A stretch of DNA of 36,089 bases, taken from IMG/VR virus record IMGVR_UViG_3300025168_000267, positions 1 through 36,089 of that record, one strand, 5' to 3'. Position numbers and translations under genes: made by a program. This document shows, in pieces, positions 4,745 to 27,253 of the stretch (position 1 is its first letter; the number at the start of each line of letters is the position of its first letter). Source of the stretch: a virus (lineage: Duplodnaviria > Caudoviricetes). Below the pieces are notes generated by a model. The model searched no databases. It was given only the letters and a program-made list of their open reading frames with translations, and had not been told where the DNA came from.

Positions 4745-5593
4745 ATGTGGGAAAGTCTACTAAAGCAAAACAAAATTCAAAAGGCTGGAAAGCGTACTAA
4801 TTATAAAATGTATAGAGATGCTTTACGAACAGCAGCATTTACGGTTATGGAAAATAAACCTGCTGGAACAGAATTTTCCGCTAAGGATTTAATTTTAATG
4901 GAAGAAGAGATAACAGAAATTGCTAAAACTTTGGTTCCTGCAAGATTATTAGGTGGATTTGCTCAATTTAGAAAAAATAAATTTGACGGTCAAATGATAG
5001 TAGCGGCAAGAATGATGGTCGCTAATGGTATGGCTGAAAAATTAGAAACAAGTAGGGTGGGATATAAACTTACAGGGCAGATGAGAAAGTCTAAAGATTA
5101 CGGTAAGTCTCCAAAAAAAATTAGCCCTGAAATGGAAGAAGACATAGAAGAAGTTGTAGCCGATAACGAGTTTGAAAATAACCCCACTCTTTCGGACAAA
5201 GTTAAACACATACTAATGGAAGGTCGTAAAAGCAATAAACCTGCAAGAACTCAAGAAGAAATGGATGAGTTTAAAAGAAAATATCCTAATGTTGATAAGG
5301 CTGAAGGTGGCTGTGGCTGTGGTTGTGATGGAGAAGATGTTTCTAAGGCTTCATCACAATGTACTAAAAGAACAAAAAAGGCAAGTTCTACTCGAAAGGG
5401 TAAAAAATGGATGGCTTGCGTTCCTAATGGTAAAGGTGGATATAAGCGTGTTCATTGGGGGCAAAGAGGTGTTTCAGTAACAGGAAAGCGAGGAAATACT
5501 AAGCGTAAAAAATCTTTTAGAGCAAGACATAAATGTTCTACATGTAAAGGTGGGGATTATTCAGCCCGTTGTATGGCTTGTAGGGATTGGTGA
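4745..5593 (+). CDS. Basic multi-domain protein with MWESLLK tag and C-terminal Cys/Lys-rich 'RKKSFRARHKC' domain
   Basis: ATG at 4745 follows GTGAT. The C-terminal KKWMACV...VHWGQRG...KRKKSFRARHKC...SARCMACRDW resembles a small basic domain I recall from marine viruses (DUF6321-like, unverified). Confidence 0.7.
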   Translation: MWESLLKQNKIQKAGKRTNYKMYRDALRTAAFTVMENKPAGTEFSAKDLILMEEEITEIAKTLVPARLLGGFAQFRKNKFDGQMIVAARMMVANGMAEKLETSRVGYKLTGQMRKSKDYGKSPKKISPEMEEDIEEVVADNEFENNPTLSDKVKHILMEGRKSNKPARTQEEMDEFKRKYPNVDKAEGGCGCGCDGEDVSKASSQCTKRTKKASSTRKGKKWMACVPNGKGGYKRVHWGQRGVSVTGKRGNTKRKKSFRARHKCSTCKGGDYSARCMACRDW

Positions 5594-5598
5594 TTAAA

Positions 5599-6630
5599 AT
5601 GTGGTTGGATATACTTAAAAAAGCAAGGGGGCGGTCAACAACAATTACGGGAAGTGCTTTAAGAGAAGTTCTTAATGACTATATTCAATCAACCGGCAGT
5701 TTAGATTTGTATTTTGTAGAAGAAGTAATAGAAAATATTTATGAAGATTATAAAGAAAAAGATAATCCAACTAAAAAAATTGGTGAAAAGAATTTTAGAA
5801 TAAAAGCAAATAAATTTTTAAGTGGATATTTGCCGGAAGAGTATGAAGTTTTAAACTATGGCAAGAAAATACTTCCCGATGGTAGGCCTAATCCCAAATG
5901 GATTATTGGCTCATTGAACCGTATTAGAATAATAGTTAAGAAAAATATAAATGAAGACCTTGAAAAAATTCGCACTCGAAGTGGAGATAGATTAAAACTT
6001 CGTGATTGGGAAGGGTTTAAAAAAACCTTAAGAGCAGGTCTTAATGCCACAGTTCCAAGAGATATTTACAATCGTAAGTCTAATGTAAGATTAACTGATG
6101 GTGACTTTGAAGACAATAAGGCTGTACTTAATGTTTCTTTTAGGTCACTACAAGGAGATAGAAGATATATTCATATTAATTTTATAGAAAAAGATGGAGA
6201 CTATTACTTTACAACAATAGAAGGTAATATTCAACTTTTTGACAGTGAAGTAATACAAACTGAAGCCCAGTTAAGAGAACGAGTTATAGACTTGGTGGAA
6301 GAAATCTATATACAAGAACAAGAGGAATACGATTTAAGAGATAAGAATGAAGAAGAACTTACTGAAGAAGAAAACATTCGACAGTTAGAAGCCTCTAATC
6401 CTGATTCTTATTGGGATAAAGAAAGGGCTATGATGGTTCCCAAAGAAAAACCTCCGGAAGAAGAAGAAACAAGAAATTTAAATTTAGAAGAGGCGGCTAA
6501 ATTGGGTGCTAAGGCTAAAGAAAAGGCTGATAAATTAAAAAATTTACTTGCTGAGAGAAAAAGAAAAAAAGGTAAGGGTAAGGATATTAAACCACTAAGA
6601 GGAAAGCGAGGTCGTAGAGATGTTTCGTAA
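5599..6630 (+). CDS. Hypothetical protein with MWLDILKK tag, acidic region and basic tail
   Basis: ATG at 5599 follows GGTGAT. The ORF is about 343 aa. Confidence 0.7.
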   Translation: MWLDILKKARGRSTTITGSALREVLNDYIQSTGSLDLYFVEEVIENIYEDYKEKDNPTKKIGEKNFRIKANKFLSGYLPEEYEVLNYGKKILPDGRPNPKWIIGSLNRIRIIVKKNINEDLEKIRTRSGDRLKLRDWEGFKKTLRAGLNATVPRDIYNRKSNVRLTDGDFEDNKAVLNVSFRSLQGDRRYIHINFIEKDGDYYFTTIEGNIQLFDSEVIQTEAQLRERVIDLVEEIYIQEQEEYDLRDKNEEELTEEENIRQLEASNPDSYWDKERAMMVPKEKPPEEEETRNLNLEEAAKLGAKAKEKADKLKNLLAERKRKKGKGKDIKPLRGKRGRRDVS

Positions 6631-6826
6631 AATTTTAGAAAAAATGCGTTTGGTTCAACTCGACATGGAAAGTATTTTAGAAACCGTTGTTCAGCAAAAT
6701 GAAGACATACAGGATTACACCGAAAGAACTTTGGGTGAAAAAATGAGCGACGAGATAATGGAACAGGTTATCGAACAAGAAGTTGTTCAAGTTATCCAAA
6801 GAAGAATTGAGGAGGCGTTTGAATGA
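6620..6826 (+). CDS. Small acidic helical hypothetical protein (neck region)
   Basis: 68 aa, overlaps both neighbours, and has GAGGT upstream. Confidence 0.65.
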   Translation: MFRKILEKMRLVQLDMESILETVVQQNEDIQDYTERTLGEKMSDEIMEQVIEQEVVQVIQRRIEEAFE

Positions 6827-7881
6827 CTTGGTTTGACACTATCTCTAAGAAAAAAGAGAAAGGTATGCGTAAATTAGAAGATGCTTTGCTTGTCGAAGGA
6901 TATAAAATTATTGAAACGAGTAAGGGTAGGGCAAAGCATACTAAAATTAAAGTTAAGCGTTTATCGGAAGTAGACGACCCGAATGCACAAGAAGTACAAA
7001 CAACTGTAAGTCACGCTGTTGCTAATGGGAGAAAAAATGCCGCTATGATTGTAAATGAAATTATTAATAAATTTGCAGGAAGAAAGCGTAGAGGGCAAGG
7101 TTCATTTAAATTATCTAATGATAAAATTAATAGATGGCAAAGTATTCTTAAGATAGAGCCGAAAGATAACCCACTGTCGGATGAGTTTGAAACACCGGAA
7201 ATACCACCAAGAAGAACACCGTTAATTTCATCTTTGGTAGCAAAAAATCAACACTTGGCATCTGTAACTGTAATATTAGATAAATTTAAATATGCTAAAA
7301 TGCTTTTTTTAGTAGACAAGACTAACGAGGGTCTTGATATGTTAAGGGTGACGGGTAAATGGTGGATTTATGATAACTCTTATGTTCTTTTAGCATTTGA
7401 CACTTTAGGGATGAAGAAGTTATTAGAGGAAAATGATACAAATTTAGTAACTCAAGATATAGATTTATTTTTAGACGCTGTGTTAGAATTTTATTTAACA
7501 ATAGATTCCAATTACGAAAAAAGAAAAAACGCCTTAGAAGTTTATGCTACTTCAATTTATGACAGTATAATTATAGAAAGTCAAAATAAGGGTAAAAAAA
7601 GACAATATATAGATGCTACTGTTGAAGAAGCGGTAAAAATTTTAGATAGATTTGAAGGTAAAGTAAAACCCATAGAAATAGTTATTCAACAAACCGTAGA
7701 AGATATAGAAGAAGGCGATACAGAAGTAGATTGGGAAACTTTATCGGAGTTATATGATACAGATATGTTTCCGGAAGATGATGAAGATGATGAAGGTACT
7801 GTAGGCGGATATATGACACCTGAAGATTATGCAGAATCAAGAACGGAAGAAACATTAAGGAGGCTAAGAAACCGTGGATGA
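6823..7881 (+). CDS. Protein with MTWFDTISK tag, N-terminal HicA-like domain and acidic C-terminal domain
   Basis: RKLEDALLVEGYKIIETSKGRAKHTKIKV...TTVSHAVANGRKNAAMIVNEI fits the HicA alpha-beta-beta-beta-alpha pattern with a His. An internal WQSILK repeat of the tag follows. Confidence 0.6.
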   Translation: MTWFDTISKKKEKGMRKLEDALLVEGYKIIETSKGRAKHTKIKVKRLSEVDDPNAQEVQTTVSHAVANGRKNAAMIVNEIINKFAGRKRRGQGSFKLSNDKINRWQSILKIEPKDNPLSDEFETPEIPPRRTPLISSLVAKNQHLASVTVILDKFKYAKMLFLVDKTNEGLDMLRVTGKWWIYDNSYVLLAFDTLGMKKLLEENDTNLVTQDIDLFLDAVLEFYLTIDSNYEKRKNALEVYATSIYDSIIIESQNKGKKRQYIDATVEEAVKILDRFEGKVKPIEIVIQQTVEDIEEGDTEVDWETLSELYDTDMFPEDDEDDEGTVGGYMTPEDYAESRTEETLRRLRNRG

Positions 7882-8467
7882 AGTTACATATTTAGTTACA
7901 CTACTTGATGAATATTGGAATACTGCTGTAACCGCATTAGGTTCTACCATTCCTGCAATTCATAGAGTCAAACCGCAAATTATGGATATACGAAGTATGG
8001 ATTCTACTCGTAATGCAGCAAAGCCCGGAAGAGGTGGTAATAGAGTAAGAATTAGTGCGGCTTCGGAAGTTACAGCAGATGGAGTTACACCTTCTTTAGA
8101 TGTTATTGTAGTTATGCAAAACTCCCAAACAATAGAATATCCTACTACTACATTCGATGTAAGAAATGAAACTCACGAAATGTCTGTAAGTATTCGTACA
8201 AAGCAAGACGATAGACGAACTAACGATAATGCAAGAATAACTCCTTCCGGTTCTACCTTTGGTAGAGACAGAATAGAAAACCTTTATAAGATAGTTCGAT
8301 ACATCATTGAAACAAACCGGAGGGGCTGGTTTCGTAATGCGGGGATTTTAGAAGAAAATATTAAAACTCTCTTATTAGGAAGCAGAACTGACAGTAATGA
8401 TAAAAAATCAAGAATATTTGGATATAGAATAAATGTAACTATGAAAAGATACGCCGTTAGTTTGTAA
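7874..8467 (+). CDS. Probable tail terminator/tail completion protein
   Basis: Lies immediately upstream of the tail tube. The pattern MSVSIRT...IENLYKIVRYII...YRINVTM fits this class. Confidence 0.55.
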   Translation: MDEVTYLVTLLDEYWNTAVTALGSTIPAIHRVKPQIMDIRSMDSTRNAAKPGRGGNRVRISAASEVTADGVTPSLDVIVVMQNSQTIEYPTTTFDVRNETHEMSVSIRTKQDDRRTNDNARITPSGSTFGRDRIENLYKIVRYIIETNRRGWFRNAGILEENIKTLLLGSRTDSNDKKSRIFGYRINVTMKRYAVSL

Positions 8468-8485
8468 GTAAAAGGGTGATTAAAA

Positions 8486-10759
8486 ATGGTAAATAACGAA
8501 ATTTGGATGGACAGCGGGGCGATGGTATCTATGATACCTGAACAAGATATATACTTGGGAATTTTTAAAGAGACTGGGGAAACAGATAATGGTTCTACAT
8601 TGACAGTTACATTAAATGATACCTTTACAGGTTTATTTTCTTTGGTTACTAATTTGTATAGAGGGTGTGTATTAGAACTATATTTACAGGCTGATGATAC
8701 ATTCCAAGACAAAGTAATTATCTCATCTAATACTGCTACCACACTTACTTTTAACGATAGCGTTATTGCAGGTATGACAGCAACATCGGAACTTTATTAC
8801 GGTATTATTAAATCAGAAGGCGCACCTGTTCCAGCACCAAAAGGTTCAGGTTCTTCGGTTTTAGAAACTGCTACTATTACAACTGCTGGAAATGATTTGT
8901 TAGCAAGTCAAGCAGTAATAGCAAATGCAGCAATTACTGGAGTTACAGGTTTAACTACAACGGGTGCTGAACTTCAATTAACACTTTCTTCTCATTCTTC
9001 GGATATTACTATGTTAGTAGCCACCTCTAATGGTTCTAATTATCAAACAGGTTTTCTTACTATTCAATTAGCATCTGCAACTGGAGATTCTACATTAGGT
9101 GTAGTTTTCGATACTTCTGCTGGAACAACTAAAGCGGGAAGTGCATTTGATGATTTTGTTGAAGTAAATGTTCCCGACAGTGCTACGGCTATTCAAATTG
9201 CTACTGCTGTTCAAACCGCTTTAGCAAATAAAAATGTTACAGTTACAAGAGCAGGTGCTAAACTTACTATAACAAATAATACAGGGGGATATGTAGGTGG
9301 TGGAGTAATGATTGCTATGGCTGATTCAGCCGGTGCAGTTACAGACTTCGGAACTTTATCAAATGATGTTGATGGTGGAATTGTTACAGCAGTTCAAATT
9401 ACAAACGCAGGTTCTTCTGTTTCCGGTAGCGGAAATTTAACAATTACAAGTGCCGCAGGTGATGATGCTGTTTTAGCATTAGCCGCAGGTGCTTCTTCAG
9501 GTAATCCTCGACTTCTTGCAGATTCGTGGTTAGGGCTTACAGATACAGTAGGTATTCCTACAACAAGTATTGCAGTTACACCTATTAATATTTCTTCAGG
9601 TTCTCGAAATATTGCATACAACCTTAAAGGTGCAGAATCTACAGCAAGTGGTAATTTGAATGTTTCAGCAAATCACTTTACATGGCTTTACTACGCATTA
9701 GGAGATATGGATATTACATCTGCTTTAAATGAAACAGCAGTTACACTTCCTACTCTTGATGCAGGAAAGGTAGGTGCGGCAGTTGATAATATTGCAGGTG
9801 AAGGTGCAACTGGAAATAACTTTATTTACGATTCTGCAAGTCCAAGTCCCGGTGGAAAGAAATTTTATCGAGTTGTTGGAACTACAATTTGTCCACCTAT
9901 TCATAGGATTGATGATGATTATACAGCCGCAGATTTAAAGGCAGTTAACCACACTTTGACAAATAAAATTACTTACGAATTTAGTGAATCGAATGAACAA
10001 ACTTTACCAACATTCGCATTAGAATATTCTCTAAAGAAACCTTCGAGTATGTCAACAGTGGCAACAGATGTTTCGGGAACAGGTATTTCCGAAACAGTAT
10101 TTACAAAGATTTTCCCCGGCTGTATGGTTGATACACTTAATTTAACAGCAACAGCAGGTGAACCAGTTAGTATGAATATAGCATTTTCTCCTAAGAAAAC
10201 ATTTACAGCACCTAATAACTACGATACTGCAAATGCAAAAACAGATGTTAAGGACTTCGTTAACTTTGGTTCTCCAAAGGGAGGGGCGGCAAATGTCACA
10301 GAATCACAACTACAACCGTTTTTCTTCTCCGATGGTTCTATTGAAATGTTCGGACAGGATTATATTAGAATTGAAAGTATTGATTTGTCCATTAGCAACG
10401 CACTACAAGAGAAGAGATTTATTGGTCGAACAGACAACACAAGCATGGCTCATATTCCTACACAGCGAATCTATGGGCTTTCTTTTACAGGACTTGTAAC
10501 AGATAATGCAATTTTTGAAGAACTGAGGAATACTTCTGCAACTTCTCTAAGTGGAACTGATGGAAACCAAATCAAGTTAAACTTTGTAAAGAATGGTGCT
10601 ACTACTGAAATCTTGTCTATGGTCTTTCAAGACTACATGGTTGTTGAAGCAGACTTCCCCCTCTCAAATGATAAAGGCCCAGTGGCCGTTACATGGAGAA
10701 TACAACCTCTACAATTAAAATCTTGCACACACGCAACAAATTGGATTATACAAGGATAA
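8486..10759 (+). CDS. Major tail (tube) protein with large decorative insertions
   Basis: C-terminal tube-like motifs include LPTFALEY, FPGCMVDTLNLTATAGEPVSMNIAF and IESIDLSISNALQEKRFIG...RIYGLSFTG. It is followed by the chaperone and tape measure genes. Confidence 0.75.
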   Translation: MVNNEIWMDSGAMVSMIPEQDIYLGIFKETGETDNGSTLTVTLNDTFTGLFSLVTNLYRGCVLELYLQADDTFQDKVIISSNTATTLTFNDSVIAGMTATSELYYGIIKSEGAPVPAPKGSGSSVLETATITTAGNDLLASQAVIANAAITGVTGLTTTGAELQLTLSSHSSDITMLVATSNGSNYQTGFLTIQLASATGDSTLGVVFDTSAGTTKAGSAFDDFVEVNVPDSATAIQIATAVQTALANKNVTVTRAGAKLTITNNTGGYVGGGVMIAMADSAGAVTDFGTLSNDVDGGIVTAVQITNAGSSVSGSGNLTITSAAGDDAVLALAAGASSGNPRLLADSWLGLTDTVGIPTTSIAVTPINISSGSRNIAYNLKGAESTASGNLNVSANHFTWLYYALGDMDITSALNETAVTLPTLDAGKVGAAVDNIAGEGATGNNFIYDSASPSPGGKKFYRVVGTTICPPIHRIDDDYTAADLKAVNHTLTNKITYEFSESNEQTLPTFALEYSLKKPSSMSTVATDVSGTGISETVFTKIFPGCMVDTLNLTATAGEPVSMNIAFSPKKTFTAPNNYDTANAKTDVKDFVNFGSPKGGAANVTESQLQPFFFSDGSIEMFGQDYIRIESIDLSISNALQEKRFIGRTDNTSMAHIPTQRIYGLSFTGLVTDNAIFEELRNTSATSLSGTDGNQIKLNFVKNGATTEILSMVFQDYMVVEADFPLSNDKGPVAVTWRIQPLQLKSCTHATNWIIQG

Positions 10760-10774
10760 GTTTAAAGACCTACC
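10760..10774 (+). promoter_or_regulatory. Putative TATA-like promoter (GTTTAAAGACCTACC)
   Basis: Intergenic, about 40 nt before ATG 10802; resembles the motif at 466-480. Confidence 0.3.
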
Positions 10775-10801
10775 CTTATTATTAACAAAAGGTGAGAACC
10801 T

Positions 10802-11170
10802 ATGGATAGAAAGACAGTAAAAAATAAGAGTGCTTTATTTGCTACGGCAGACCCTAAACTACATTATGTTAAGGTGTCACCCAAAAGTGATGAATACCTA
10901 AAGATATGGATTAAGGAACCTACCTTTTTACAATTAGAAAAGGCACAGGCGAAATTAATTAACCTAAATGCTAAAACAAAGGACATTTCTCTTGAAATGG
11001 ACACACTGTTCCGTTATCTATGGGAAGCGTTTGTTGAAAAAACCGAACCATCCCTAACGGCAATTGAAATTTTAAGGTTAAGTCCTTATGTTGGAAATCA
11101 AGTTAAGGATATTCTCCCCGACCCCTTCGATTTAGAGGGGGATGAAGATTTAAAAGAAAGTTCCGAATAG
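10802..11170 (+). CDS. Tail assembly chaperone (gpG-like)
   Basis: 122 aa, between tube and tape measure. It has a slippery heptamer near the 3' end. Confidence 0.75.
   Translation: MDRKTVKNKSALFATADPKLHYVKVSPKSDEYLKIWIKEPTFLQLEKAQAKLINLNAKTKDISLEMDTLFRYLWEAFVEKTEPSLTAIEILRLSPYVGNQVKDILPDPFDLEGDEDLKESSE
11149..11155 (+). other. Programmed -1 ribosomal frameshift site T TTA AAA
   Basis: An X XXY YYZ heptamer in the correct phase of the 10802 ORF. The -1 frame is open and continuous with ORF 11173-11358. Confidence 0.8.
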
Positions 11171-11172
11171 CG

Positions 11173-11358
11173 TTGAGGGGAGGGAAAATTGCTGACCCTA
11201 CTATCGCTTCTCGCATAACTTTATATATCTTGGCAAAGGAACTACATATTAGTCCGGCTGAGGCATACCAAATGCCTTATTCTATGGTCCGTGATTTTAT
11301 GGTTTTATTTACTATCACAAAAGAAGCCGAAGCCGAAGCACTTAAAAAGCAGGTGTGA
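11173..11358 (+). CDS. Tail assembly chaperone C-terminal extension (gpT-like, expressed by frameshift)
   Basis: Only a weak TTG start with no SD. LAKELHISPAEAYQMPYSMV is typical of gpT segments, and it is in the -1 frame relative to the upstream ORF. Confidence 0.75.
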   Translation: MRGGKIADPTIASRITLYILAKELHISPAEAYQMPYSMVRDFMVLFTITKEAEAEALKKQV

Positions 11359-11360
11359 AT

Positions 11361-13850: not shown

Positions 13851-13854
13851 TATA

Positions 13855-14574
13855 ATGGCAATTAGTACAAACGATGTTTTAGGAAATATGGGCGGAGATT
13901 CTTATTCGGTAGACCATGCAGTATTTTTAAACTTTGCAGCAAGAGAAGAAGGCACTTCTTCAAGCATTACAAATCGTATTATGTTAAAATGTGATACAGT
14001 TGGTATTTCTACTAATAGAAATATTCCTTCTTTTCCCGTTCCCTTTTCAGGATTGGTAAGAGGGGAGTCAACTAATATTGCCATAGATTTAGGTATTGCT
14101 TCAAAATCTATTCAGTTGGGCGGAGTAATTACAGACCAAATTATTAGCAAACAAAAAGGAAGTGATGATGTTATTAATGTTTCTATGACAGCACAGGAAA
14201 TAGCACAATTAATATCCTCGTCAGTGGACTCTTCCTTTCTTCAAAGTATGCAAAATTTAAATGAATTAATTATTCTCTATCCTTCTCGTGTAGGAAATAA
14301 TTATACTTATCATACCGGAGTGGATGAAAATACAAAACATGCAGATTTACCTTTAGTGCCTTTTACTTGGAAATCACGCACACTTGATGAAGCAGGGTCG
14401 GCGGCAACAGGAAATTTTCCAAATCCAAATGCTAATGAATATGAAGGAATTACAGGTTTTATATCTCAATTTGGGTGCGAGTTTGCGGGTGGACAGTTAG
14501 TTACATTTAATCTCTCATTTACTGAATCAGTTGTAGCAAGTGGTTCAGCAATTAAAGATGCGATTGGTGGGTGA
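13855..14574 (+). CDS. Probable distal tail/tube-initiator protein
   Basis: Directly after the tape measure. Beta-rich, with IDLG...SIQLGGVI and GFISQF...VTFNLSFTE patterns. ATG 13855 follows GAGGATGA. Confidence 0.55.
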   Translation: MAISTNDVLGNMGGDSYSVDHAVFLNFAAREEGTSSSITNRIMLKCDTVGISTNRNIPSFPVPFSGLVRGESTNIAIDLGIASKSIQLGGVITDQIISKQKGSDDVINVSMTAQEIAQLISSSVDSSFLQSMQNLNELIILYPSRVGNNYTYHTGVDENTKHADLPLVPFTWKSRTLDEAGSAATGNFPNPNANEYEGITGFISQFGCEFAGGQLVTFNLSFTESVVASGSAIKDAIGG

Positions 14575-14579
14575 TTAAT

Positions 14580-18600: not shown

Positions 18601-21600
18601 AGTCAATATGCTTTAAGATTTAATACACCTATTTGGCGATATGTAAATAAGTGTTTTGGGAGATTAACCAGAAATCTTGCTACTAAAATAACAAGTGCTA
18701 ACACTTCTTATCCATTTCACTACAATGACTACTATGAAAAGGTAAGTAATTATCATTTTTATGCTTCCGGCTACAAAGCAAGTGTTGGTAGAATACCTAC
18801 GGCTGATGAACATAAGGATGATACAGATACCGATAAACCTTACAGGATAGAACTACCGACAGAAAGAACCGGTCTTTTACCAGCAGTAGGTTCGAGGTCA
18901 TACGATATTACCCGCTATCCTGATAATTTTAATACTTCTGAAAATCACTACGGGAGAAGGTTAGAAATTGACGACACCGGAATTAGTATGGTTGATAGAT
19001 ATAAGGCTACATATGAATTATATGATAACGATAGTGGCCCTTTACATATTTTTTCCATAGGTGACATTTATCCTGAAAGTAAAAAGAACCCTAATAATAT
19101 AGGATTTACCGAAGGAACTTATAGTAGAAGTATTGCTGACTACGGGGTTGTTTTTAAGGGGCAACCCAAAGGTGCTGAAGTGGTTCTTAGTCATACTAAT
19201 TGGTCTGGAGTTTCTACTATTAAAAATAGATTAAACGATGATTATTTTTATCAACCTATTGAATCTTCTCAAGGTGATTTAAAGAGAATGAACCTTGTAA
19301 GATTAACTGATGTTACTTATGACATGATGATGAACGAAGTAGACTATGAAAATTACAAATTTGATAATTTTGGTGGACCTAAAACACATCAAATTATCAG
19401 TGAACAAATTACCAAAAATAGTCACATAATTAAAAGTTTTACTGAATCAGGATTTAGCCCAATTGATATTACACTTACTTCTAATATTTCAGCAGGAACT
19501 ACTATTGCAGTAAATGATGATGGCTGGTTTGAGCCATCCGGCGATTATATATTTACTCTCTATACTGACCCCTTTAATTCGTATTCAGCAAATAGCGCAC
19601 ACAATGATTTTGATTACGGAGTCCCATTATTAATAGGGCAGGTTGCGAGTGTAAGTAGTAATACTATTACTATTCCTGCTATGGGTCCTTTACACCCAGT
19701 AGTAGGTTATACTTCCGGTTCAAAACTTTATGTTACAGTTAAGTTAGCCGCAGAAAACGCAAATACAAATACTTTGAGTATTTCTGGAAATAATAGAGAA
19801 CAATTTCCTATAATAAAAGTAACAGAAGTAGATAATGGTGATGGTGTAATGGACCATAATTACAATAGAACTATGGCTTTGGTTAATATCGGTGATGGTT
19901 CTACTAATGACGGGGATATGGAACAAGGTAGCGATGGTAGTAATATCGCTGAAGAAAATAGATTCCCACTTGATGTTGATGATGCTACTGTTGCTGGAAC
20001 ACTTCACGATGTTAACGGCATTGTTAAACTTCCCTATATTCCTGATTCAGTAACAGAAGGAAGTCATTTTAACGGTAATAATGGACTCGAAACAACTACC
20101 GGAACTAACACCCATATGTTTAGATGGAATTTTGATGCTAACTTTAATGGTGCTGTAATGACTATTACAAATGGAAAGGCTTTAGACTTTTTCCAATCGA
20201 GCGGGGTGGGTAAAATGTGGTTTCAAAACAATACTATAGATATAGGTTCTACTACAACTTCACTGGTATTTAGCCTTACAGTTGGTTCGGACAACAGTTA
20301 TAACCGAACAACATTAAGATTAACGAATGTTACTAATACGGCATTAACCTTTGTTACAGATACAGGGAGTACAAGTCCGAGTTGGTCTAATTCGGATGAA
20401 ACAAATTGTGTATTAACAATAAAAGGTCACTCTACAACAGTAACTAAAACTGCACAGAGATTATTCCCAATAAGAGCAATACAGGATAGCAAACATGGAG
20501 GTGCATTTACATTTAAAAATATGCACCCAGTTATTTTAGACATACCTATCTATTCTGGAAATACAGGTTCCGACACATTAGGAACAAGTATTGAATGTAA
20601 GGCTACTGGTGCTATCATTACAGAAGAACCTGAAAGTATTTCACATTTTTCTATACAAGTAGGTGGATTTAAACACGATGAAAGTGTATATGATGTAGAC
20701 GGATTAGAAATTTTAGTTCATAACGATTCAACAAGTAGTTCTGCTACCCCCGGATTATACGAAAATAATATTGGTGGAACTAATTTTGAGGGAGTAAGAC
20801 CTGTAGAAGTTTTATTCAAACCATTTATAGATGTATCGGATTTTACAGTAACAACACATGCCGATGATGCTGGTTTAAAAACTACTGAAAAGATTTTAAC
20901 TACTACTATGAAGGTAGATGTTTTAGATAGAAATTCTAGTAGTGGTACTAATGAATGGTTATGTTATTCTAATAATTTGACAGGTTACTATTTATATGGA
21001 AATGATAAATTACATAAAGTTATTTCTCATACTGTTGCTAAGGATTCTACAACATTTAAACATTATTTAAAAATAGATAACGCAAGTTCTACTCCAAGTG
21101 GTAATTTAACTCTTATGAAAATTAACCAAACCTGCACTTACGATTATTCACCTAAAGAAATACAATTAAATAAGCCTTCTTATCTTTACACTAAAAAACC
21201 CGGACATGATAAAATGACAGATAAAGTGCCTTCAGCACTTGATATAAGAGGTGGGAAAGAAATTCTTAATGGTGCATATTATTTAAGTGGTATCGCAAGG
21301 GGAGGTATTGAATCTTTATATACTGTAATTGAACCTGATGGCACTGGAGGTAGTTATTTAATACCTCGGACAAATTCTGATATTTCATTTACAAATAGTT
21401 TTTCAACCGGTAGCGAACATTCAGTGTATATAACTGACGGTATTAATTCACTAAGAACTTCTATGTTTGTAAGTAATAATAAGGCGTTGTCATTTACAGA
21501 TATGAAAGAGATGAAAGGCACACCTTCTATCGGAAGTATTTTTACTATTACTACTAACCAAAATCCAGACTTTAAACCTGAATCAATTAGTATCTGCGCC

Positions 21601-22476
21601 CCGTTTAAGGTCGTGAGAGAAGCAGAAGAAATTGCTGATGATATTTTATCTAAGGTTGGATTACCGTATAATAAATCAGATAATACCGACAGATATTATT
21701 TAGCGGCAAATTACACAGGAGAGAATGCTCTTACTGCCACTAATAATGCCTTGTCATTTAAAGGTTTAAAATTAAAAACAGCAGGGCAGGATATAATTAT
21801 TACCAGTGATGAAGATGAAAAGGATTATAGAGATATTGTTTTTGATGAAGATGATGATAAATATTCTATCGTTAGTATTAAAAAGGACAAAACTCTGTAC
21901 GATAGATTTAATAAAGTAATTTTATACGGAGATGGAGTTAGAGGGGTTGCTTCTAATTACAGGGATATTAAAAAACGCAATAGAGAATATGTTAAAGAAG
22001 TCTACGACTTTTCAATTGTAGATTCAAAACAAGTACAAGAAAAAGCAATTAAATTATTAAAATTATTTACAAATTTACAGGAAGCCGTTGAGATTGAAGT
22101 TGGCAATAGAATACCTTTCTTAGAATCAGGACATATAGTTACAGTTAGTTTCCCAACCGAGGGTATTAATAGAGGGGAATATGTGGTAATAGAAGTTAAT
22201 AGAGAAATGGGCTACCCCGTTAAAATACTGCTCGGACAATATAATAGAGATTTAGCAAATACATTTTCCATGTTGCTTTCGGAAACACGCAATTTACAAG
22301 GAAGGTCGAAGCAAAAAGTTTATACGAGTGTGACCTCTCCTAATGTTGATATACAAGCGATGAAGGTGAAATTAGTTAAGGCGAGCATAACTAAAACAAC
22401 CCAAGCAACTGCCAGCAGTGGTTCAACATTAGGATTAACAAAGGCATTAGGTTTGGATTCGGGGATGGGACTATGA
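15604..22476 (+). CDS. Giant (2290 aa) tail hub/baseplate-adhesin protein
   Basis: Hub-like segments TIFEGKIE...YEITGRDVIGDLLN and C-terminal FNKVILYGDG...FLESGHIVTV...EYVVIEVNRE flank T/S/N-rich beta domains. Confidence 0.7.
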   Translation: MAENVYVLNTGVDIPDNFALRTASFNVKTSTNPRIVTQEANDSDVLGIYSYEIHTDDTSASMGSGTVSGSLLNRLFPLGSQVTDVTKYATNLFENPGYRITIDTGTAGVTLAADRDYFVLIYADNLLKHHIARITEKQEYEGDIFNFDFEPALPENISAGTKVAIYQGPFNINKSSSGADDVVAVAYGLLNDTATSEERHDKYVEASRPTFYFYNGKTALDHDRKYTVLKTSTNAAGGSLVKKSVFVTDSPTSGYILDKSIFTQNANLVDNNKLNDRLLNGSSATTPRGINSGTAQGSLYDFDHTTWAGSSKNYDDSDGGLKTYISYIDSPLRTQSLSTPYQLTTKKTITNKGNMFEAKYYDTERMLEKKINENESIQIKELIGSKEIRDEPTAQLPGTYDRVATNSFRAEGLDSGVDLRTLLGLSAPFEPILIDGVYYIISSIQAPLDGNQQFSVTHKRAIASTAYESVGTLSTDLLGKKAFRKVWSPITLRYLIGHDIDTTAGGTSGLTRNGKDLVVTPSTVFQTTAHALDSDIHGLEYVYEGRYYGYNAKVITGDKPNGYTSLDFEPESSYYSNSHILNSLKGNLLVYRTIFEGKIESTETKVEQGQFKYEITGRDVIGDLLNTAVNTNYTYSDEFVYSTMNPFNKNYTDIGRNVSSISGAVVTADGAPNVNFGDVLYLKGTHASLDPSYYLLGVVKSVSGNNITLVKDCYIRKHTTFVGDTTLATDIYKARRSVLAGKTLETSLRNTDRSTTLIGSADKGAVFTTGKYFDYGTVYADNGKLNTITSRTIEGCTFSNTSTTITTPTNGTVDLVAGMLVRGTGIPDKATIVSITNTTTFTLSANTTSASATGGNSLIFGDLNGFEINNLITTISDDADYTDSPIAFDFHYNTISSMVDFPVLSEVDTKDGLTQFEIGYVSPIVVGRIETDNLLDTFIESSDTAQASRKNNSIYLINGQGMPLGGFLHLLGGEVNADKSPKTFNNDFEEDPTLNLTVNSQYALRFNTPIWRYVNKCFGRLTRNLATKITSANTSYPFHYNDYYEKVSNYHFYASGYKASVGRIPTADEHKDDTDTDKPYRIELPTERTGLLPAVGSRSYDITRYPDNFNTSENHYGRRLEIDDTGISMVDRYKATYELYDNDSGPLHIFSIGDIYPESKKNPNNIGFTEGTYSRSIADYGVVFKGQPKGAEVVLSHTNWSGVSTIKNRLNDDYFYQPIESSQGDLKRMNLVRLTDVTYDMMMNEVDYENYKFDNFGGPKTHQIISEQITKNSHIIKSFTESGFSPIDITLTSNISAGTTIAVNDDGWFEPSGDYIFTLYTDPFNSYSANSAHNDFDYGVPLLIGQVASVSSNTITIPAMGPLHPVVGYTSGSKLYVTVKLAAENANTNTLSISGNNREQFPIIKVTEVDNGDGVMDHNYNRTMALVNIGDGSTNDGDMEQGSDGSNIAEENRFPLDVDDATVAGTLHDVNGIVKLPYIPDSVTEGSHFNGNNGLETTTGTNTHMFRWNFDANFNGAVMTITNGKALDFFQSSGVGKMWFQNNTIDIGSTTTSLVFSLTVGSDNSYNRTTLRLTNVTNTALTFVTDTGSTSPSWSNSDETNCVLTIKGHSTTVTKTAQRLFPIRAIQDSKHGGAFTFKNMHPVILDIPIYSGNTGSDTLGTSIECKATGAIITEEPESISHFSIQVGGFKHDESVYDVDGLEILVHNDSTSSSATPGLYENNIGGTNFEGVRPVEVLFKPFIDVSDFTVTTHADDAGLKTTEKILTTTMKVDVLDRNSSSGTNEWLCYSNNLTGYYLYGNDKLHKVISHTVAKDSTTFKHYLKIDNASSTPSGNLTLMKINQTCTYDYSPKEIQLNKPSYLYTKKPGHDKMTDKVPSALDIRGGKEILNGAYYLSGIARGGIESLYTVIEPDGTGGSYLIPRTNSDISFTNSFSTGSEHSVYITDGINSLRTSMFVSNNKALSFTDMKEMKGTPSIGSIFTITTNQNPDFKPESISICAPFKVVREAEEIADDILSKVGLPYNKSDNTDRYYLAANYTGENALTATNNALSFKGLKLKTAGQDIIITSDEDEKDYRDIVFDEDDDKYSIVSIKKDKTLYDRFNKVILYGDGVRGVASNYRDIKKRNREYVKEVYDFSIVDSKQVQEKAIKLLKLFTNLQEAVEIEVGNRIPFLESGHIVTVSFPTEGINRGEYVVIEVNREMGYPVKILLGQYNRDLANTFSMLLSETRNLQGRSKQKVYTSVTSPNVDIQAMKVKLVKASITKTTQATASSGSTLGLTKALGLDSGMGL

Positions 22477-22817
22477 TTACAAAACAAGCAAGGGCTACAA
22501 TAAAAGCAGATGTAATTTCTACATACACTCATTTTGAAGTAGGAACAGGTGGAGATTCTACAAACCCTAATGCTAATTCTTTAGACGCACCTTTAGCAAA
22601 CAGGGCTACTGTAACTTCTGTTTCAAGTGGCGAGTCCTCGGTAGATTTTTCTTTTACAGTGCAGGGTTCTACATTTGTAGGACACACGATTAAAGAAGTA
22701 GGAATCTTTTCAGCATCAACGGGTGGTAATATGTTGTTAAGAGTTAATTACGATGGCATTGGGCCATTAACATCACTCGATGAAATAGAATTTATTATAA
22801 CAGTGGAAGTGGACTAA
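22473..22817 (+). CDS. Small tail-tip/fibre attachment (collar-like) protein
   Basis: MITKQAR...FEVGTGG...IKEVGIF...GNMLLR resembles tail-collar/fibre N-terminal domains. Confidence 0.6.
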   Translation: MITKQARATIKADVISTYTHFEVGTGGDSTNPNANSLDAPLANRATVTSVSSGESSVDFSFTVQGSTFVGHTIKEVGIFSASTGGNMLLRVNYDGIGPLTSLDEIEFIITVEVD

Positions 22818-25165
22818 TGACAATAACAACAGCGAATCAAAAGGGAATAACAACATTGGGTGGAACTACTGGATTAGTAGACCAAACAGATAAAATGCAC
22901 AGTGGGCTTATAAAGGCTTTAGAGGTATTTGGACAGGGTAGAAAAATTATAGGTCATGCTGGATTTGAAATATATGATTCCGGCTCCTATGTGGGTTATA
23001 GACTTAAGCAACCTATACACTTTATAGATTTAGGTCGCCATGTTACATATGAAACAAATTTAGAAGTTTCATATACTTCTCAACAAAGAGATGCTAATTA
23101 TGATAAATACGATTGGGTATTATTAAATCCTAATCATGGTGGTAATCCTGAAATTATTATTGTAGGTGGGACTCTCGACGGTGCTAATGCTTTAGTTTCA
23201 GATATATCTGCAAATACAATTCCCGTTGCTTTGATTAAAGTTCCCGCAGGAACAGATACCGACGATACTACTGGTTATAAAGCACAGTTATATACATTTA
23301 ATAATAGACGACAGGATTTATCACTTGGATATGATGATGGGGCTACGCCACCTTATTACAAAAATACATTAACTGCTACTTCAGCCGCAGGAGGAACTAC
23401 CTTTACTAACACTATTGGGGATTTAATTTTTGATAATACAGATAATAACGACCAAATTGTTATGAGGTTGGGAACTGATACTGCCACTACTGGTTTTGAA
23501 GTTAGAAACGATTCCGATACCGCTGCATTTAAAGTTAATGGTTTATCCGCTACCGATGTTGTGGGTAATTTAGTTGTCACACAAGGTTCAGCAGGTGGAC
23601 AAATAGCCCTTAAGATTGATAATGATGATGTTGATAAAGTTGCTTTAGGTATTGAAGCCGCAAATACAACTGCTAATGTTTTAGATATTACCGCTAATGC
23701 TGTAACTACTGGTACTGCTATTAGAAATTCTTCAACTGCATTAACTACTGGTGCGGCTATTGATTTAGTTTCTACTTCTACACCTGCTGATGGAAACGGT
23801 TCTATACCTCACACTTTTAAAACTACTCAAGCGGGAACTGGAACTCACACAGTAAAGGGATTACTTGTAGATGTAAATAAGACAGGGGTAACAGATAATG
23901 GAAAAACAAATACTCTTACCGGAGTGCATATAGATGTTGACGATTCCGCTACAAATAATTCAGTGGGAACTGTAACCATGACAGGTTTAGATGTAGATGT
24001 GAACTCGGCTAATGATACTGGGACCTTAAAAAACATTGGATTAGATGTTAATGTTGTTGGTGCAGATACTAATTATGCCGCTTTATTTAATGGTGGTAAT
24101 GTTGGTATTGGAACAACAGCACCAGCAAGAGCATTAGAAGTAGAAGCCACTTCAAACCCCGGAATTAGAATACAAGAAACGGGTCAATCGGGATATTTAG
24201 AAATGTTTGGTTTAGCAGATAGCCAAGCACAGATTAAAGCCACTAACGCAACTTCGGGAGAAACATGTAGTCTTGATTTAGATGTTTCAACTGTATCGGG
24301 TAATAATCAAGAAATTCGTCTTTTTAGAAATTCTAATACCGCCAGTGATGCTTACTTTAGAATAAAAAGACCGGGGGTAAATACTAATGTTTTAACAATA
24401 TATTCGGATAAAGACGGTACGGACCATGAAATGCAATTAGATGGAAAACTTTCTGTTGGAACAACAACGAAAGACCCTAATGCTATCCTTACAGTTGAAG
24501 GGGCAATTTCTTTAGATGAAATAGGGGCCTCGCCTACTAATACTGCTGATAGAGCGCAACTATATGCAATACAAGGAGATAGACATTTGCGTTATGTAGA
24601 TGGTGCTGGTGTTGATTTACCTATATTATTAGGAGGAAAACATTCTATTTGGATTCCCGCAGAAGCAATTAGTCCGAGAAGTAATGCAGGTTGTGGTGCT
24701 TTGGCTACAACAGCCGCCGCTACAAATGGAAGACCTGATATTAGAGCATTACCTTTTGATAAAGATTCTGATGAACATGGACAATTTACAATAGCGATGC
24801 CCGGAACTTGGAATGCGGGAACTTTGACAGCACAATTTTATTGGACTTCAACTTCTTCAACAACTTCCCATGATGTAACTTGGGCTATTCAAGGTGTTTC
24901 TTTAGCAAATGATAACCCAATTGATACTGCTTTTGGAACTGCTGTGGTTAAACATGATACAGTAATAGCGGCTAAAGACCTTCATATTAGTGGTGAAACA
25001 GGTGCAATAACTGTTGCAGGTGCAGGTGCAGGTGAATTAGTTTGTTTTCAAATTTATCGAGATGTTGATGGAAACGGAACTGCCGCTAATGATGATTTAA
25101 ATGTTGATGCTTTATTAATGGGAGTTAGAATATTTTATACTATCTCAAGAGGAAATGAGTCGTGA
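22817..25165 (+). CDS. Tail fibre/receptor-binding adhesin
   Basis: GNVGIGTTAPARALEV and GKLSVGTTTKDPNAILTV fibre repeats, beta-helix-like GLDVDV repeats and a C-terminal globular domain. Confidence 0.75.
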   Translation: MTITTANQKGITTLGGTTGLVDQTDKMHSGLIKALEVFGQGRKIIGHAGFEIYDSGSYVGYRLKQPIHFIDLGRHVTYETNLEVSYTSQQRDANYDKYDWVLLNPNHGGNPEIIIVGGTLDGANALVSDISANTIPVALIKVPAGTDTDDTTGYKAQLYTFNNRRQDLSLGYDDGATPPYYKNTLTATSAAGGTTFTNTIGDLIFDNTDNNDQIVMRLGTDTATTGFEVRNDSDTAAFKVNGLSATDVVGNLVVTQGSAGGQIALKIDNDDVDKVALGIEAANTTANVLDITANAVTTGTAIRNSSTALTTGAAIDLVSTSTPADGNGSIPHTFKTTQAGTGTHTVKGLLVDVNKTGVTDNGKTNTLTGVHIDVDDSATNNSVGTVTMTGLDVDVNSANDTGTLKNIGLDVNVVGADTNYAALFNGGNVGIGTTAPARALEVEATSNPGIRIQETGQSGYLEMFGLADSQAQIKATNATSGETCSLDLDVSTVSGNNQEIRLFRNSNTASDAYFRIKRPGVNTNVLTIYSDKDGTDHEMQLDGKLSVGTTTKDPNAILTVEGAISLDEIGASPTNTADRAQLYAIQGDRHLRYVDGAGVDLPILLGGKHSIWIPAEAISPRSNAGCGALATTAAATNGRPDIRALPFDKDSDEHGQFTIAMPGTWNAGTLTAQFYWTSTSSTTSHDVTWAIQGVSLANDNPIDTAFGTAVVKHDTVIAAKDLHISGETGAITVAGAGAGELVCFQIYRDVDGNGTAANDDLNVDALLMGVRIFYTISRGNES

Positions 25166-25646
25166 TATTATGTTTGGTAGAACAGTAAATGGATTTGGTT
25201 CTTATGCAAATAGAACAGTAGCGGTTTCAGCAGTATCGGATATTTACAGTGAAGATGATAATGGAACAGGTGCAACAGGTGATGGTAATAGTAAGTTCAC
25301 TAAAACCGTAGGAGGTTCTGCAACACATAATCAAAGGGTATTAGACCCATTAGAAGTTACAGCAGGTCAAGCAATTACAGTTGGATTAAATGGTGAATGG
25401 ACTGGAACAGAAACTTCTATCGCTTGGAGTATATTAGAAATAGATAATGGACTTGGTTTAGTAGCAAGTGTTTCAGTAGCGGTAGATGGTTCTTCTGCGG
25501 CTACAACTGCGGCCTTTGACCCAGTATTTACTATTGCGGCAAGTGCAGGGCCGGGTGAACAAGCCGCTTACAGACTTACATTGGCTGTTACTAATTCCGG
25601 TGGAACTACTACTAAAAATTGGGACTTTTTAGTTATCTTCCCTTGA
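25155..25646 (+). CDS. Ig/PKD-like virion accessory protein
   Basis: G/A/T-rich; C-terminal YRLTLAVTNSGGTTT resembles a PKD/Ig terminal strand. Confidence 0.5.
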   Translation: MSRDIMFGRTVNGFGSYANRTVAVSAVSDIYSEDDNGTGATGDGNSKFTKTVGGSATHNQRVLDPLEVTAGQAITVGLNGEWTGTETSIAWSILEIDNGLGLVASVSVAVDGSSAATTAAFDPVFTIAASAGPGEQAAYRLTLAVTNSGGTTTKNWDFLVIFP

Positions 25647-25661
25647 TGATAGACAAATATT

Positions 25662-25679
25662 AAATAGTCGTTACTATTT
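25662..25679. promoter_or_regulatory. Inverted repeat AAATAGT-cgtt-ACTATTT overlapping a TATA-like TATTAAATA
   Basis: Perfect 7-bp arms in the intergenic gap upstream of the membrane-protein genes. Confidence 0.4.
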
Positions 25680-25699
25680 GGTTTATAACAGTGGTAGCC

Positions 25700-25909
25700 A
25701 TGTCTGATTTAGATGAAGTCCTTGAACGAGATTCGGATGGTAAAATAAATTGGCTTGTTTCAAAGGTGAATGATATTGATACGAGAGTTCATACAATCGA
25801 AACAAATCATTTATTTCATATGGAAAAAGACATGGTTATGCTAAGAAGGGGAGTCTTCCTACTCGCCGCAATTGGAATTACATATTTAACAGGAGTGCAA
25901 ATACTATGA
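25700..25909 (+). CDS. Small coiled-coil protein with C-terminal transmembrane helix (XhlA/holin-like)
   Basis: IDTRVHTIETNHLFHMEKDM is followed by hydrophobic GVFLLAAIGITYLTGVQIL. Confidence 0.6.
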   Translation: MSDLDEVLERDSDGKINWLVSKVNDIDTRVHTIETNHLFHMEKDMVMLRRGVFLLAAIGITYLTGVQIL

Positions 25910-26349
25910 AAGAAACAAAAGATACATTTAATGACCGTATGGTTAAAAGAACAGTGTTACCAGCAATTTATTTATGGCTTCTTGCCGCAGGTGCAGTAGT
26001 AGGTATGGGTATATGGAAGCCTGATGTTGTATTAACAAACCTTGACGGTTTTATTGCACTTATCGCAATTATCAGTGGTGTTTCAGCACCAGCCTTACAA
26101 ACAGTTCTTCGTATGTGGGAATCTGAACAGACTATCGAAATTGATAACATGGGTGTTGAAATGGAACACGAAAGAGAAAGAGATGCACTAAATAAGCAAC
26201 ATGTAATTGATTTAGAAAAGGCTCGACAAAAGCATGAACAGGAAATGCTTACAGCGGCTCAAGAACATAAGCACATCGTTGAGAAGCATAAGGAAACTAT
26301 TGTCAAACTTACACCTATTCATAAGATGGGCGAAGATACTGAGGAATAA
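25906..26349 (+). CDS. Two-TM membrane protein with His/Glu-rich coiled-coil tail (holin-like)
   Basis: TM1 is VLPAIYLWLLAAGAVVGMGIW and TM2 is GFIALIAIISGVSAPAL, followed by a charged helix. Confidence 0.6.
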   Translation: MKETKDTFNDRMVKRTVLPAIYLWLLAAGAVVGMGIWKPDVVLTNLDGFIALIAIISGVSAPALQTVLRMWESEQTIEIDNMGVEMEHERERDALNKQHVIDLEKARQKHEQEMLTAAQEHKHIVEKHKETIVKLTPIHKMGEDTEE

Positions 26350-26351
26350 AT

Positions 26352-26552
26352 ATGTGGCGAGATACTTTGAAAAAGGATGCTGAAACTTATTTTAAGGAAA
26401 AAATTGCTGAGTATGAGCGTAGACTTAAAAGAGACCCCAATGATACTAAGGCTAAAGATGCCTTGAAGTATTATAAAGAACAATTATCTCTTGCACCCGA
26501 AAGATTACGAGCATTTAAAAATATTAAGGTGAAGAATAATGACTCGTTGTAA
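26352..26552 (+). CDS. Small protein with MWRDTLKK tag and TPR-like helical hairpin
   Basis: GAGG SD upstream. EKIAEYERRLKRDPNDTKAKDALKYY resembles a single TPR. Confidence 0.65.
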   Translation: MWRDTLKKDAETYFKEKIAEYERRLKRDPNDTKAKDALKYYKEQLSLAPERLRAFKNIKVKNNDSL

Positions 26553-26646
26553 TTATTTAGATGCTTGGTTTGATGAACAGTCAAAGATAGTAGATAAAGA
26601 AGAAGAAGAAACTAAAAAAGATTTTGTCACAGGTGAGAAGAAATGA
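26539..26646 (+). CDS. 35-aa microprotein MTRCNYLDAWFDEQSK... (not in ORF track)
   Basis: AGGTGA SD at 26527-26532; its stop overlaps the next ATG (ATGA). Confidence 0.6.
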   Translation: MTRCNYLDAWFDEQSKIVDKEEEETKKDFVTGEKK

Positions 26647-26903
26647 AATGGGAAAACTTATTAAAGATTAAAACATTGAGCGATAGAGATGGAAATTACA
26701 AAGTGTCTGATTTATACAGTCCTTCTAAGTTTAGTGATATTGTTCATAGTGATTTAAATGAATATCACAATATGCGTGATTTTAAAACTATTAGTTTTGA
26801 CGGCAATCATCCACATGTCGGAGGCGCACATCAGTATTTTAAACCAAATAATACAAAGGAAGCAGTTTGTATGCGATGTATGGTAAGGATGAATTCTCAA
26901 TAA
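26643..26903 (+). CDS. Small protein with MKWENLLK tag and possible Zn-binding H..H..CxxC
   Basis: AGGTGA SD upstream; contains HPHVGGAH...CMRC. Confidence 0.65.
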   Translation: MKWENLLKIKTLSDRDGNYKVSDLYSPSKFSDIVHSDLNEYHNMRDFKTISFDGNHPHVGGAHQYFKPNNTKEAVCMRCMVRMNSQ

Positions 26904-26916
26904 AGGAAGTAAAAAA

Positions 26917-27093
26917 ATGAGTTGGTTTGATATTGTTAAATATAATCGAGAACATTATGTTCGTGCAGGTCGTAAGCATAATGACCCTGAAACAATTAGT
27001 GTTCATCAAAGAATTTTAGAATTAGTAAATAACCGTAATATTCCAAGAAGAGAATTAGGTGCAAGAATAAAACAAGTTTTAGAAGAGGAATAA
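26917..27093 (+). CDS. 58-aa protein with MSWFDIVK tag (not in ORF track)
   Basis: Translated by hand: MSWFDIVKYNREHYVRAGRKHNDPETISVHQRILELVNNRNIPRRELGARIKQVLEEE. AAGGAAG lies upstream. Confidence 0.65.
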   Translation: MSWFDIVKYNREHYVRAGRKHNDPETISVHQRILELVNNRNIPRRELGARIKQVLEEE

Positions 27094-27128: not shown

Positions 27129-27157
27129 AAAAAAAAGCCCCGACCCCCTATCGGGGC
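27129..27157 (-). terminator. GC hairpin plus T-tract between convergent operons
   Basis: GCCCCGA-CCCCCTA-TCGGGGC forms a 7-bp stem at 27137-27157. The A8 run at 27129-27136 reads as a U-tract 3' of the hairpin on the minus strand. Confidence 0.6.
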
Positions 27158-27253
27158 CGAGGCCAAAAAAAGTATATATCTAACTGTTATTATTCTTTAT
27201 AGGGTATATGACCCCCAGAAACAAACAGAACATTTTTTTAGTTTGAAACTCAA

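Follow-up and report, generated by a model that had tools for sequence, protein, structure and literature searches.

An N-terminal peptide on unrelated magrovirus structural-strand proteins resembles scaffold tails and is a candidate head-loading tag

Why should six genes of one viral DNA, with otherwise unrelated bodies, begin with nearly the same peptide? The DNA is IMG/VR record IMGVR_UViG_3300025168_000267, whose 36,089 bases were analysed entire (the window, G000), and the six open reading frames (ORFs 1 to 6) lie on its + strand, starting with MWESLLK (4745), MWLDILK (5599), MTWFDTISK (6823), MWRDTLK (26352), MKWENLLK (26643) and MSWFDIVK (26917). An initial annotation of the window had read this peptide as an N-terminal address tag that, like the capsid-targeting sequence of phage T4, sends diverse effectors into the head. 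All six peptides are present at these coordinates, 27093 being the end of the last ORF, and the ORFs form two clusters as described, one (4745-7881) between the head-tail adaptor gene (3655-4743) and gene 7874 and the other (26352-27093) directly before the convergent early block. The strict motif W..[ILVMT][ILVM]K fits five of the six, ORF 3 (WFDTISK) having a degenerate copy. Comparison with relatives indicates that M-x-W-x-[DE]-I-L-K is a portable, protein-level tag of magroviruses, placed on dozens of unrelated soluble bodies encoded on the structural strand, and that, as judged from sequence, it joins a look-alike of the scaffold tail to a Lys site common to the head proteins of relatives. 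Our preferred reading, to which we give a probability of about 0.65, is that this scaffold-mimicking tag loads proteins into the virus head.

The + strand of the window (1-27093) carries genes for the neck, tail tube, tape measure and tail, and the − strand encodes PolB, a primase and ERCC4 and PD-(D/E)XK nucleases. We found 33 loci in IMG/VR as relatives; they encode an HK97-type capsid protein, an S78 prohead protease, a portal and an ATP-dependent ligase, and the best GenBank matches of their protease are in the haloviruses HCTV-5, HVTV-1 and HCTV-1. Gene content and affinities, rather than a tree, fit the window being part of the genome of a magrovirus, a virus of marine Poseidoniales archaea, and the gene content agrees with the Poseidoniales magroviruses in the available portions of PMC5434244, PMC11706807 and PMC10160649. 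The closest complete relative (G001, 90.8 kb) has an adaptor 93% identical and a PolB 90% identical to those of the window.

We counted the tag in the window and nine related records with genes called de novo, scoring the strict motif as a start when a Met lies 1-6 residues upstream and taking as the structural strand that of the capsid and tail genes, some of whose genes may not be late. In these ten genomes the strict tag stands at the start of 131 of the 530 structural-strand genes and of none of the 396 on the replication strand, with 3 (G003) to 24 (G007) tags per record; a looser form of the motif gives 147 structural-strand starts and one on the replication strand. Since the motif was written after the data had been seen, the nine other genomes are the fairer test (126/505 versus 0/383), and since they are related to one another they do not sample independently. 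In the window by itself the bias between strands (5/25 versus 0/13) does not reach significance (Fisher P = 0.14). The enrichment over shuffled controls and on the structural strand of relatives that the address-tag proposal entailed was thus borne out, five tagged starts being observed where 20,000 residue shuffles of the 38 called proteins of the window gave a mean of 0.066 and a maximum of 2. None of the core structural families has the full tag, in keeping with the remark that no recognisable structural gene starts with it.

The conservation lies in the protein, as had been proposed, and not in a DNA repeat. The 131 tagged bodies fall into 62 single-linkage BLAST clusters, and among one representative of each cluster the 18 nucleotides encoding the tag take 60 different forms. 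Codon use in the tag is near background at most positions, with a slight deviation for Leu at W+4 (P = 0.026) and a deviation of the Ile codons at W+4 that involves seven cases only. Upstream of the tagged genes nothing is shared beyond a ribosome-binding site, no 8-mer being common to more than 13 of 147. Among 29 homologues of ORF 2, residues W2, I5 and K7 are at least 90% conserved and the next ∼110 residues contain no such column, a pattern that points to selection on the tag.

An exact, back-translated search with the octapeptide returned at least 129 IMG/VR loci, 87 of them with one or more magrovirus homologues and 67 with two or more tags; many of the remaining loci are only ∼600 bases long. 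The same search of 185,579 prokaryotic species genomes (GTDB) gave 29 loci, none with two tags and none with an archaeal record title. Tagged genes are clustered, are shuffled between relatives and turn over rapidly: single-genome families make up 58 of 147 tagged genes versus 53 of 383 untagged ones, and the number of tagged genes at the neck locus of relatives ranges from 0 to 7. In G007 (L138:8193-13961, +), and also in G008, about seven tagged genes stand in tandem; the 14 members in the two genomes share a longer N-terminal stretch past the tag. Arrays of tagged genes are also present (L192-L194) on a 184,733-base IMG/VR contig of twice the usual genome size, either a concatemer or a larger relative.

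The tag resembles head proteins in both of its halves. The first half, M[SDTN]W.[DEQ][ILVA], stands at the start of 39 structural-strand genes, and ∼214,000 residues contain 17 internal occurrences. All but one of the 17 lie 7-11 residues before a C-terminus, that of the protease-scaffold fusion or that of a 74-78-residue protein encoded upstream of it, which we infer to be a mini-scaffold; these 16 are found in all eight genomes holding these genes. Across the wider set of loci compared, the M-S-W-x-D/E-I motif stands at the C-terminus of 51/51 distinct protease-scaffolds and 35/35 mini-scaffolds. In a position-weight scan the scaffold tails score high in some genomes and below the top six in G001 and G006. 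The second half, hydrophobic-hydrophobic-Lys, lies just before the Peptidase_S78 domain (E = 1e-11) in 51/51 proteases and matches the context of capsid-protein Lys26 (for example NLLK|A and NILK|S), which is invariant in 56 sequences. Sites of the form [ILVM]-x-K-[AS] are about eight times denser in the scaffold (40 in 1,770 residues) than in replication-strand proteins (179 in 65,440). Conservation of the tag ends at its Lys, itself invariant, and this Lys is never followed by Pro (0/131 versus 4.3 expected). One or other half of the motif is thus represented in the scaffold, protease and capsid protein of relatives, the first two of which the initial annotation had named among the places to look for it. 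In G001 the gene for the ATP-dependent DNA ligase (L036:17582-19663, −) lies within the head module, with the mini-scaffold region on one side and the protease-scaffold on the other, a placement seen in all relatives holding that region.

The tag is not confined to N-termini. We collected 23 homologues of ORF 3 from 1.84 billion representatives, 16 of which were flagged as extending past its first module (one, P0059, is a pattern mismatch kept in the count). In 12 of these 16 an internal tag follows the first module and unrelated bodies follow the tag; two of the 12 internal tags are two residues from the C-terminus, and several homologues with an internal tag have no N-terminal Trp. Because internal and C-terminal copies exist and N-terminal copies have been lost, the motif appears active at any exposed position, which is how a docking motif would behave. 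The description of an N-terminal tag thus holds for the starts of genes, and the motif as a whole is better described as a docking motif than as a strict N-terminal leader. Its residues 2-11 are predicted to be helical in a model of ORF 2. In two families the structural-strand copies are tagged and the replication-strand copies are not: a small helical family has tagged and untagged copies both within G001 and within G006, and the first module of ORF 3 has both within G007, with untagged replication-strand copies in G007 and G009. The two families appear to have gained the tag in their structural-strand copies. Such natural gain, together with the swapping of domains, hints that the tag may suffice to package a foreign protein.

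On the preferred reading, the tag is a copy of the helix conserved at the C-terminus of the head scaffolds, so that unrelated late proteins would dock inside the assembling prohead. Its M-S-W-x-D/E-I half would bind the site used by the scaffold tails, for which the inner face of the capsid protein is the most plausible candidate; we consider this step likely. An equally likely second step is that the S78 protease, of HK97 type, would cut after hydrophobic-x-Lys, removing tags and splitting fused cargo, in the way that the HK97 protease cuts at K103/S104 (PMC10275583, portion available). The freed bodies would remain in the mature head, and the chances seem about even that part of this cargo would leave with the DNA on ejection. 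The address-tag proposal is supported by the match to scaffold tails and Lys sites, the restriction to the structural strand and the gain of tags by structural-strand copies; head loading and cleavage we infer. The most far-reaching version is an open cargo system, in which any gene acquiring an eight-residue mimic of the capsid anchor of the scaffold would have its product loaded, processed and passed into the archaeal host. A rapidly exchanged injected arsenal would in that case take up as much as a third of the structural-strand genes, and among its members would be proteins for host takeover or anti-defence that bind RNA and DNA and were taken over from early genes; this version we put forward tentatively, as possible and well short of an even chance.

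Several observations weigh against head loading. The head genes lie outside the window, and the evidence on scaffold, protease and capsid protein comes from relatives, of which G001 is the closest. Binding of the scaffold tail to the capsid protein is assumed here from other viruses. The scaffold tails are polar where the tag has L or I, so the match to the tag comprises five residues only. The residue after the tag Lys is diverse (small in 37/131), unlike the A, S, G or Q after capsid Lys26, and some tags may therefore not be cut. Some tagged proteins are large, up to 806 residues, and at least 20 species per head would be a heavy load. The HVTV-1 genome, the nearest cultured relative examined, has Lys sites in its capsid N-terminus and scaffold, and no W-tag was found among the 25 genes listed from a 40-kb region. 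Magroviruses are described as uncultured in the available portions of the literature, where no virion proteome was found. A virion assignment for a cyanophage protein discussed below, S-SCSM1 gp029 (ORF29), was likewise not confirmed: the 45 virion proteins that mass spectrometry revealed in PMC9602691 are marked only in a figure, outside the portion of that source available. Co-folding of the G001 capsid protein (56-row alignment) with residues 1-32 of ORF 6 (42-row alignment) gave a score of 0.00 and a mark of 0.32 in a run that had no controls, and is used neither for nor against the reading.

We then asked what the cargo proteins are. Of 132 tagged proteins compared with Pfam, 122 have no match at E ≤ 0.001, six match DUF5754, one a zinc ribbon and three fall below threshold; 70 compared with PHROGs match families of unknown function only, and 30 scanned with NCBIfam match nothing. 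No known inhibitor or enzyme family occurs in any of these three sets. A transmembrane-like window is present in 0/131 tagged versus 37/399 untagged structural-strand proteins. Bodies are strongly basic in 32 cases and strongly acidic in 33, and the recognisable ones are Lys/Arg-rich Cys modules (DUF5754, phrog_727) and small helical modules. A 54-residue tagged protein has matches in 366 GenBank phage records, the majority from T4-like cyanophages, with 70-86% identity over ∼40 residues in most; the tagged module is matched in syn9 gp114 and S-SCSM1 gp029 (independent E value down to 1e-22), the latter called a 'virion protein' by RefSeq, which ties tagged proteins to virions indirectly. The proposal that the cargo are effectors against host defence is unsupported by these comparisons. 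Small DNA- or RNA-binding modules are the only recognisable class of cargo, and an anti-defence action for them is possible, though we regard it as doubtful.

The first module of ORF 3 offers a structural lead. Its model (pLDDT, the predicted local distance difference test score, of 79) has an alpha-beta-beta-beta-alpha topology, and a His before the second strand is invariant in nine aligned members, both of which we take to be features of HicA. Profile searches for HicA stayed below threshold, with one of nine members at E = 0.015 and one of 22 homologues at 15.6 bits versus a cut-off of 27. A Foldseek search with the module gave no matches at E ≤ 0.001 and HicA was absent among the matches listed; a PDB sequence search returned designed proteins only (E ≥ 0.3). 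For this module and for ORF 2, the ESM Atlas gave no usable feature match, its structure rows being unnamed or below threshold, and the ORF 2 model (pLDDT 66) had no Foldseek match at E ≤ 0.001. The predicted module thus weakly resembles HicA or double-stranded RNA-binding domains, and we treat this as a lead only.

The same cargo inventory bears on the alternative that survives best, which differs from the preferred reading in the role of the cargo only: the tag would load the head with filler, namely proteins that condense DNA, balance charge or assist the scaffold, part of which the protease would destroy, and not with injected effectors. The Lys/Arg-rich Cys modules and small helical modules, the strongly charged bodies of both signs and the lack of any enzyme family in the Pfam and NCBIfam comparisons speak for it. 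Set against it are the rapid turnover of tagged genes, including the 0 to 7 tagged genes of the neck locus, which is more typical of host conflict, and the HicA-like or double-stranded RNA-binding-like predicted topology, with its invariant His, of one module. We regard filler as a serious alternative with somewhat better than a one-in-three chance.

It is unlikely that the tag is a recognition site for the prohead protease and nothing more, recruiting proteins through the protease or marking late proteins for activation or destruction in the cytoplasm without binding to the capsid. The Lys with its two hydrophobic residues does match the capsid and protease sites, and the Lys is never followed by Pro. 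The Trp half, however, is missing from the capsid and protease sites and present in the scaffold tails, which have no Lys, and cleavage at C-terminal tags followed by two residues would free nothing useful. It is improbable to the same degree that the tag is a helix by which proteins dock on some other late hub, whether portal, terminase, viral chaperonin or host protein, to which the scaffold tails bind as well, and that the tagged proteins act in the infected cell unpackaged. Short amphipathic helices, such as the tag is predicted to form, bind many surfaces, and a chaperonin-like gene is present in some of these viruses (PMC5434244, portion available). Host-directed proteins are, however, usually early, and the tag is never on the replication strand; moreover, none of the 29 octapeptide matches in prokaryotic genomes lies in a cluster of tagged genes or under an archaeal title, so the tag is not a host motif in its exact form.

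The two remaining explanations are largely excluded. A DNA-level cassette of ribosome-binding site and first codons, spread by recombination and without protein function, would account for the clustering and shuffling of tagged genes but not for 60 different encodings among 62, near-background codons, the lack of a common upstream 8-mer or the retention of the motif within fused proteins and at the C-terminus of scaffolds. A secretion signal, membrane anchor or N-terminal degron would suit the N-terminal place and amphipathic pattern but not the absence of a hydrophobic stretch (0/131), the internal and C-terminal copies or the proteins with an internal copy and no N-terminal one. PIP and APIM clamp-binding motifs and class III signal peptides were also considered and were dropped for wrong spacing and for want of a hydrophobic stretch, respectively.

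The capsid-targeting sequence of T4 is the closest known parallel. In T4 it encapsidates internal proteins into the scaffolding core and works on foreign proteins too (PMC3012670, portion available). As in IPI-III of T4, a short conserved N-terminal peptide occurs on diverse, polymorphic late proteins, here 131 tags on 62 body clusters. Unlike the T4 sequence, the magrovirus tag ends in an invariant Lys and its associated protease is Peptidase_S78 and not gp21, so that by sequence and by protease it does not belong to the T4 family. The T4 targeting site ends in Glu, and gp21-type proteases are Glu-specific. The magrovirus system further differs in having 3 to 24 strict tags per genome on tens of families, with copies also internal and C-terminal; in a tag that visibly mimics the scaffold C-terminus; and in belonging to an archaeal virus and being known from genes alone. 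By analogy, the tag would work like the T4 capsid-targeting sequence while standing outside the T4 family.

Other systems share parts of the arrangement. The C-terminal helix-turn-helix of the P22 scaffold binds the coat protein's N-arm (10.1101/2022.12.13.520362, portion available), and similar sites are noted for T7 and HK97. The magrovirus scaffold likewise has a conserved helical motif at its extreme C-terminus (51/51), but in magroviruses this motif serves a second time, as a portable tag at the N-terminus of proteins other than scaffolds. HK97 shares with magroviruses the protease family Peptidase_S78, and conserved hydrophobic-hydrophobic-Lys sites occur in the capsid protein, protease and scaffold; unlike HK97, magroviruses have a capsid propeptide of only ∼26 residues, a scaffold fused to the protease and a site built into the tag on dozens of accessory proteins. 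The basic module (phrog_727) of syn9 gp114 and S-SCSM1 gp029 is common to tagged magrovirus proteins, and the cyanophage genes lie among neck and terminase genes; in the cyanophages, however, the module has no W-tag and lies inside a long protein behind Glu-containing linkers rather than a Lys tag. Beside it, S-SCSM1 gp030 (L150:3921-4241, +) starts with a ten-residue peptide ending in Glu, which we take to resemble the T4 targeting peptide.

We found no description of the tag in the literature searched, and the available portions of the three magrovirus papers hold no relevant passage on such a motif or on N-termini. Magroviruses infect one of the most abundant microbial groups of the surface ocean, and their structural region is largely unannotated. 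If the preferred reading is true, a single motif would tell where the products of about a quarter of the structural-strand genes are located, and the tag would be the first capsid-targeting tag in an archaeal virus, with a visible origin (the reused scaffold anchor) that is not evident for T4. It would also supply a list of proteins that are candidates for injection to counter the defences of Poseidoniales, and a handle of eight residues for loading proteins into HK97-type capsids.

Within the window the three larger tagged genes, ORFs 1 to 3, are all fusions. ORF 1 (4745-5593, +; 282 residues; tag at 4745-4765), which has an in-frame alternative GTG start at 4736, three codons upstream, joins a variable N-terminal module to a basic Cys-rich DUF5754 module that is a separate tagged gene in L002, L017, L021 and G007. 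Two internal V-x-K-A sites (5291-5350, +), VDKA at 5291-5302 and VSKA at 5339-5350, mark the junction of the modules and are predicted protease sites. No shorter homologues of the N-terminal module were found when searched for. A homologue of the DUF5754-like module that stands alone and has no tag is gp56 of Pelagibacter phage Kolga (L151:2426-2665, +), whose gene lies close to one for head morphogenesis. In ORF 2 (5599-6630, +; 343 residues; tag at 5599-5619) a variable module A (∼residues 18-114), of which homologues have 0-3 repeats, is combined with a conserved module B that lies behind an L-E-K site (5959-5967); 34/34 homologues have a Lys site ahead of module B, and 30 of the 34 have a strict N-terminal tag. 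ORF 3 (6823-7881, +; 352 residues; degenerate tag at 6823-6849) comprises the predicted alpha-beta-beta-beta-alpha module (6850-7116), an internal full tag WQSILK (residues 105-110; 7135-7152, +) and a second, interchangeable body, the half downstream of WQSILK being a separate tagged gene in relatives.

The second cluster comprises ORF 4 (26352-26552, +; 66 residues; tag at 26352-26372), ORF 5 (26643-26903, +; 86 residues; tag at 26643-26666), for which no homologue was found among the loci searched, and ORF 6 (26917-27093, +; 58 residues; tag at 26917-26940), the last gene of the structural strand. The initial annotation had passed over the internal tags and, in this cluster, a 35-residue ORF (26539-26646, +) with a W-F-D-x-x-S-K stretch resembling the degenerate tag of ORF 3. 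It has a Cys near its start, then W-F-D/N and a charged helix, and its homologues occur in six of nine other genomes, usually beside tagged genes; it may be a variant of the tag or may regulate loading.

Among the neighbouring genes, the untagged adaptor gene that flanks the first cluster (3655-4743, +; phrog_442, E = 5e-4) encodes a protein with no matches among 50,697 GenBank phage records. Within that cluster an untagged conserved gene of 68 residues (6620-6826, +), recognised from homologues, is present also where tagged genes are absent. Upstream, 1055-3655 (+) encodes an acidic protein of 866 residues without a family match, which has an untagged start and an internal W-K-N-L-M-K at residue 267 and diverges between close relatives far more than the adjoining genes. 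A G+C-rich hairpin at 27136-27164, between the convergent structural and replication blocks, has a terminator-like score on the − strand.

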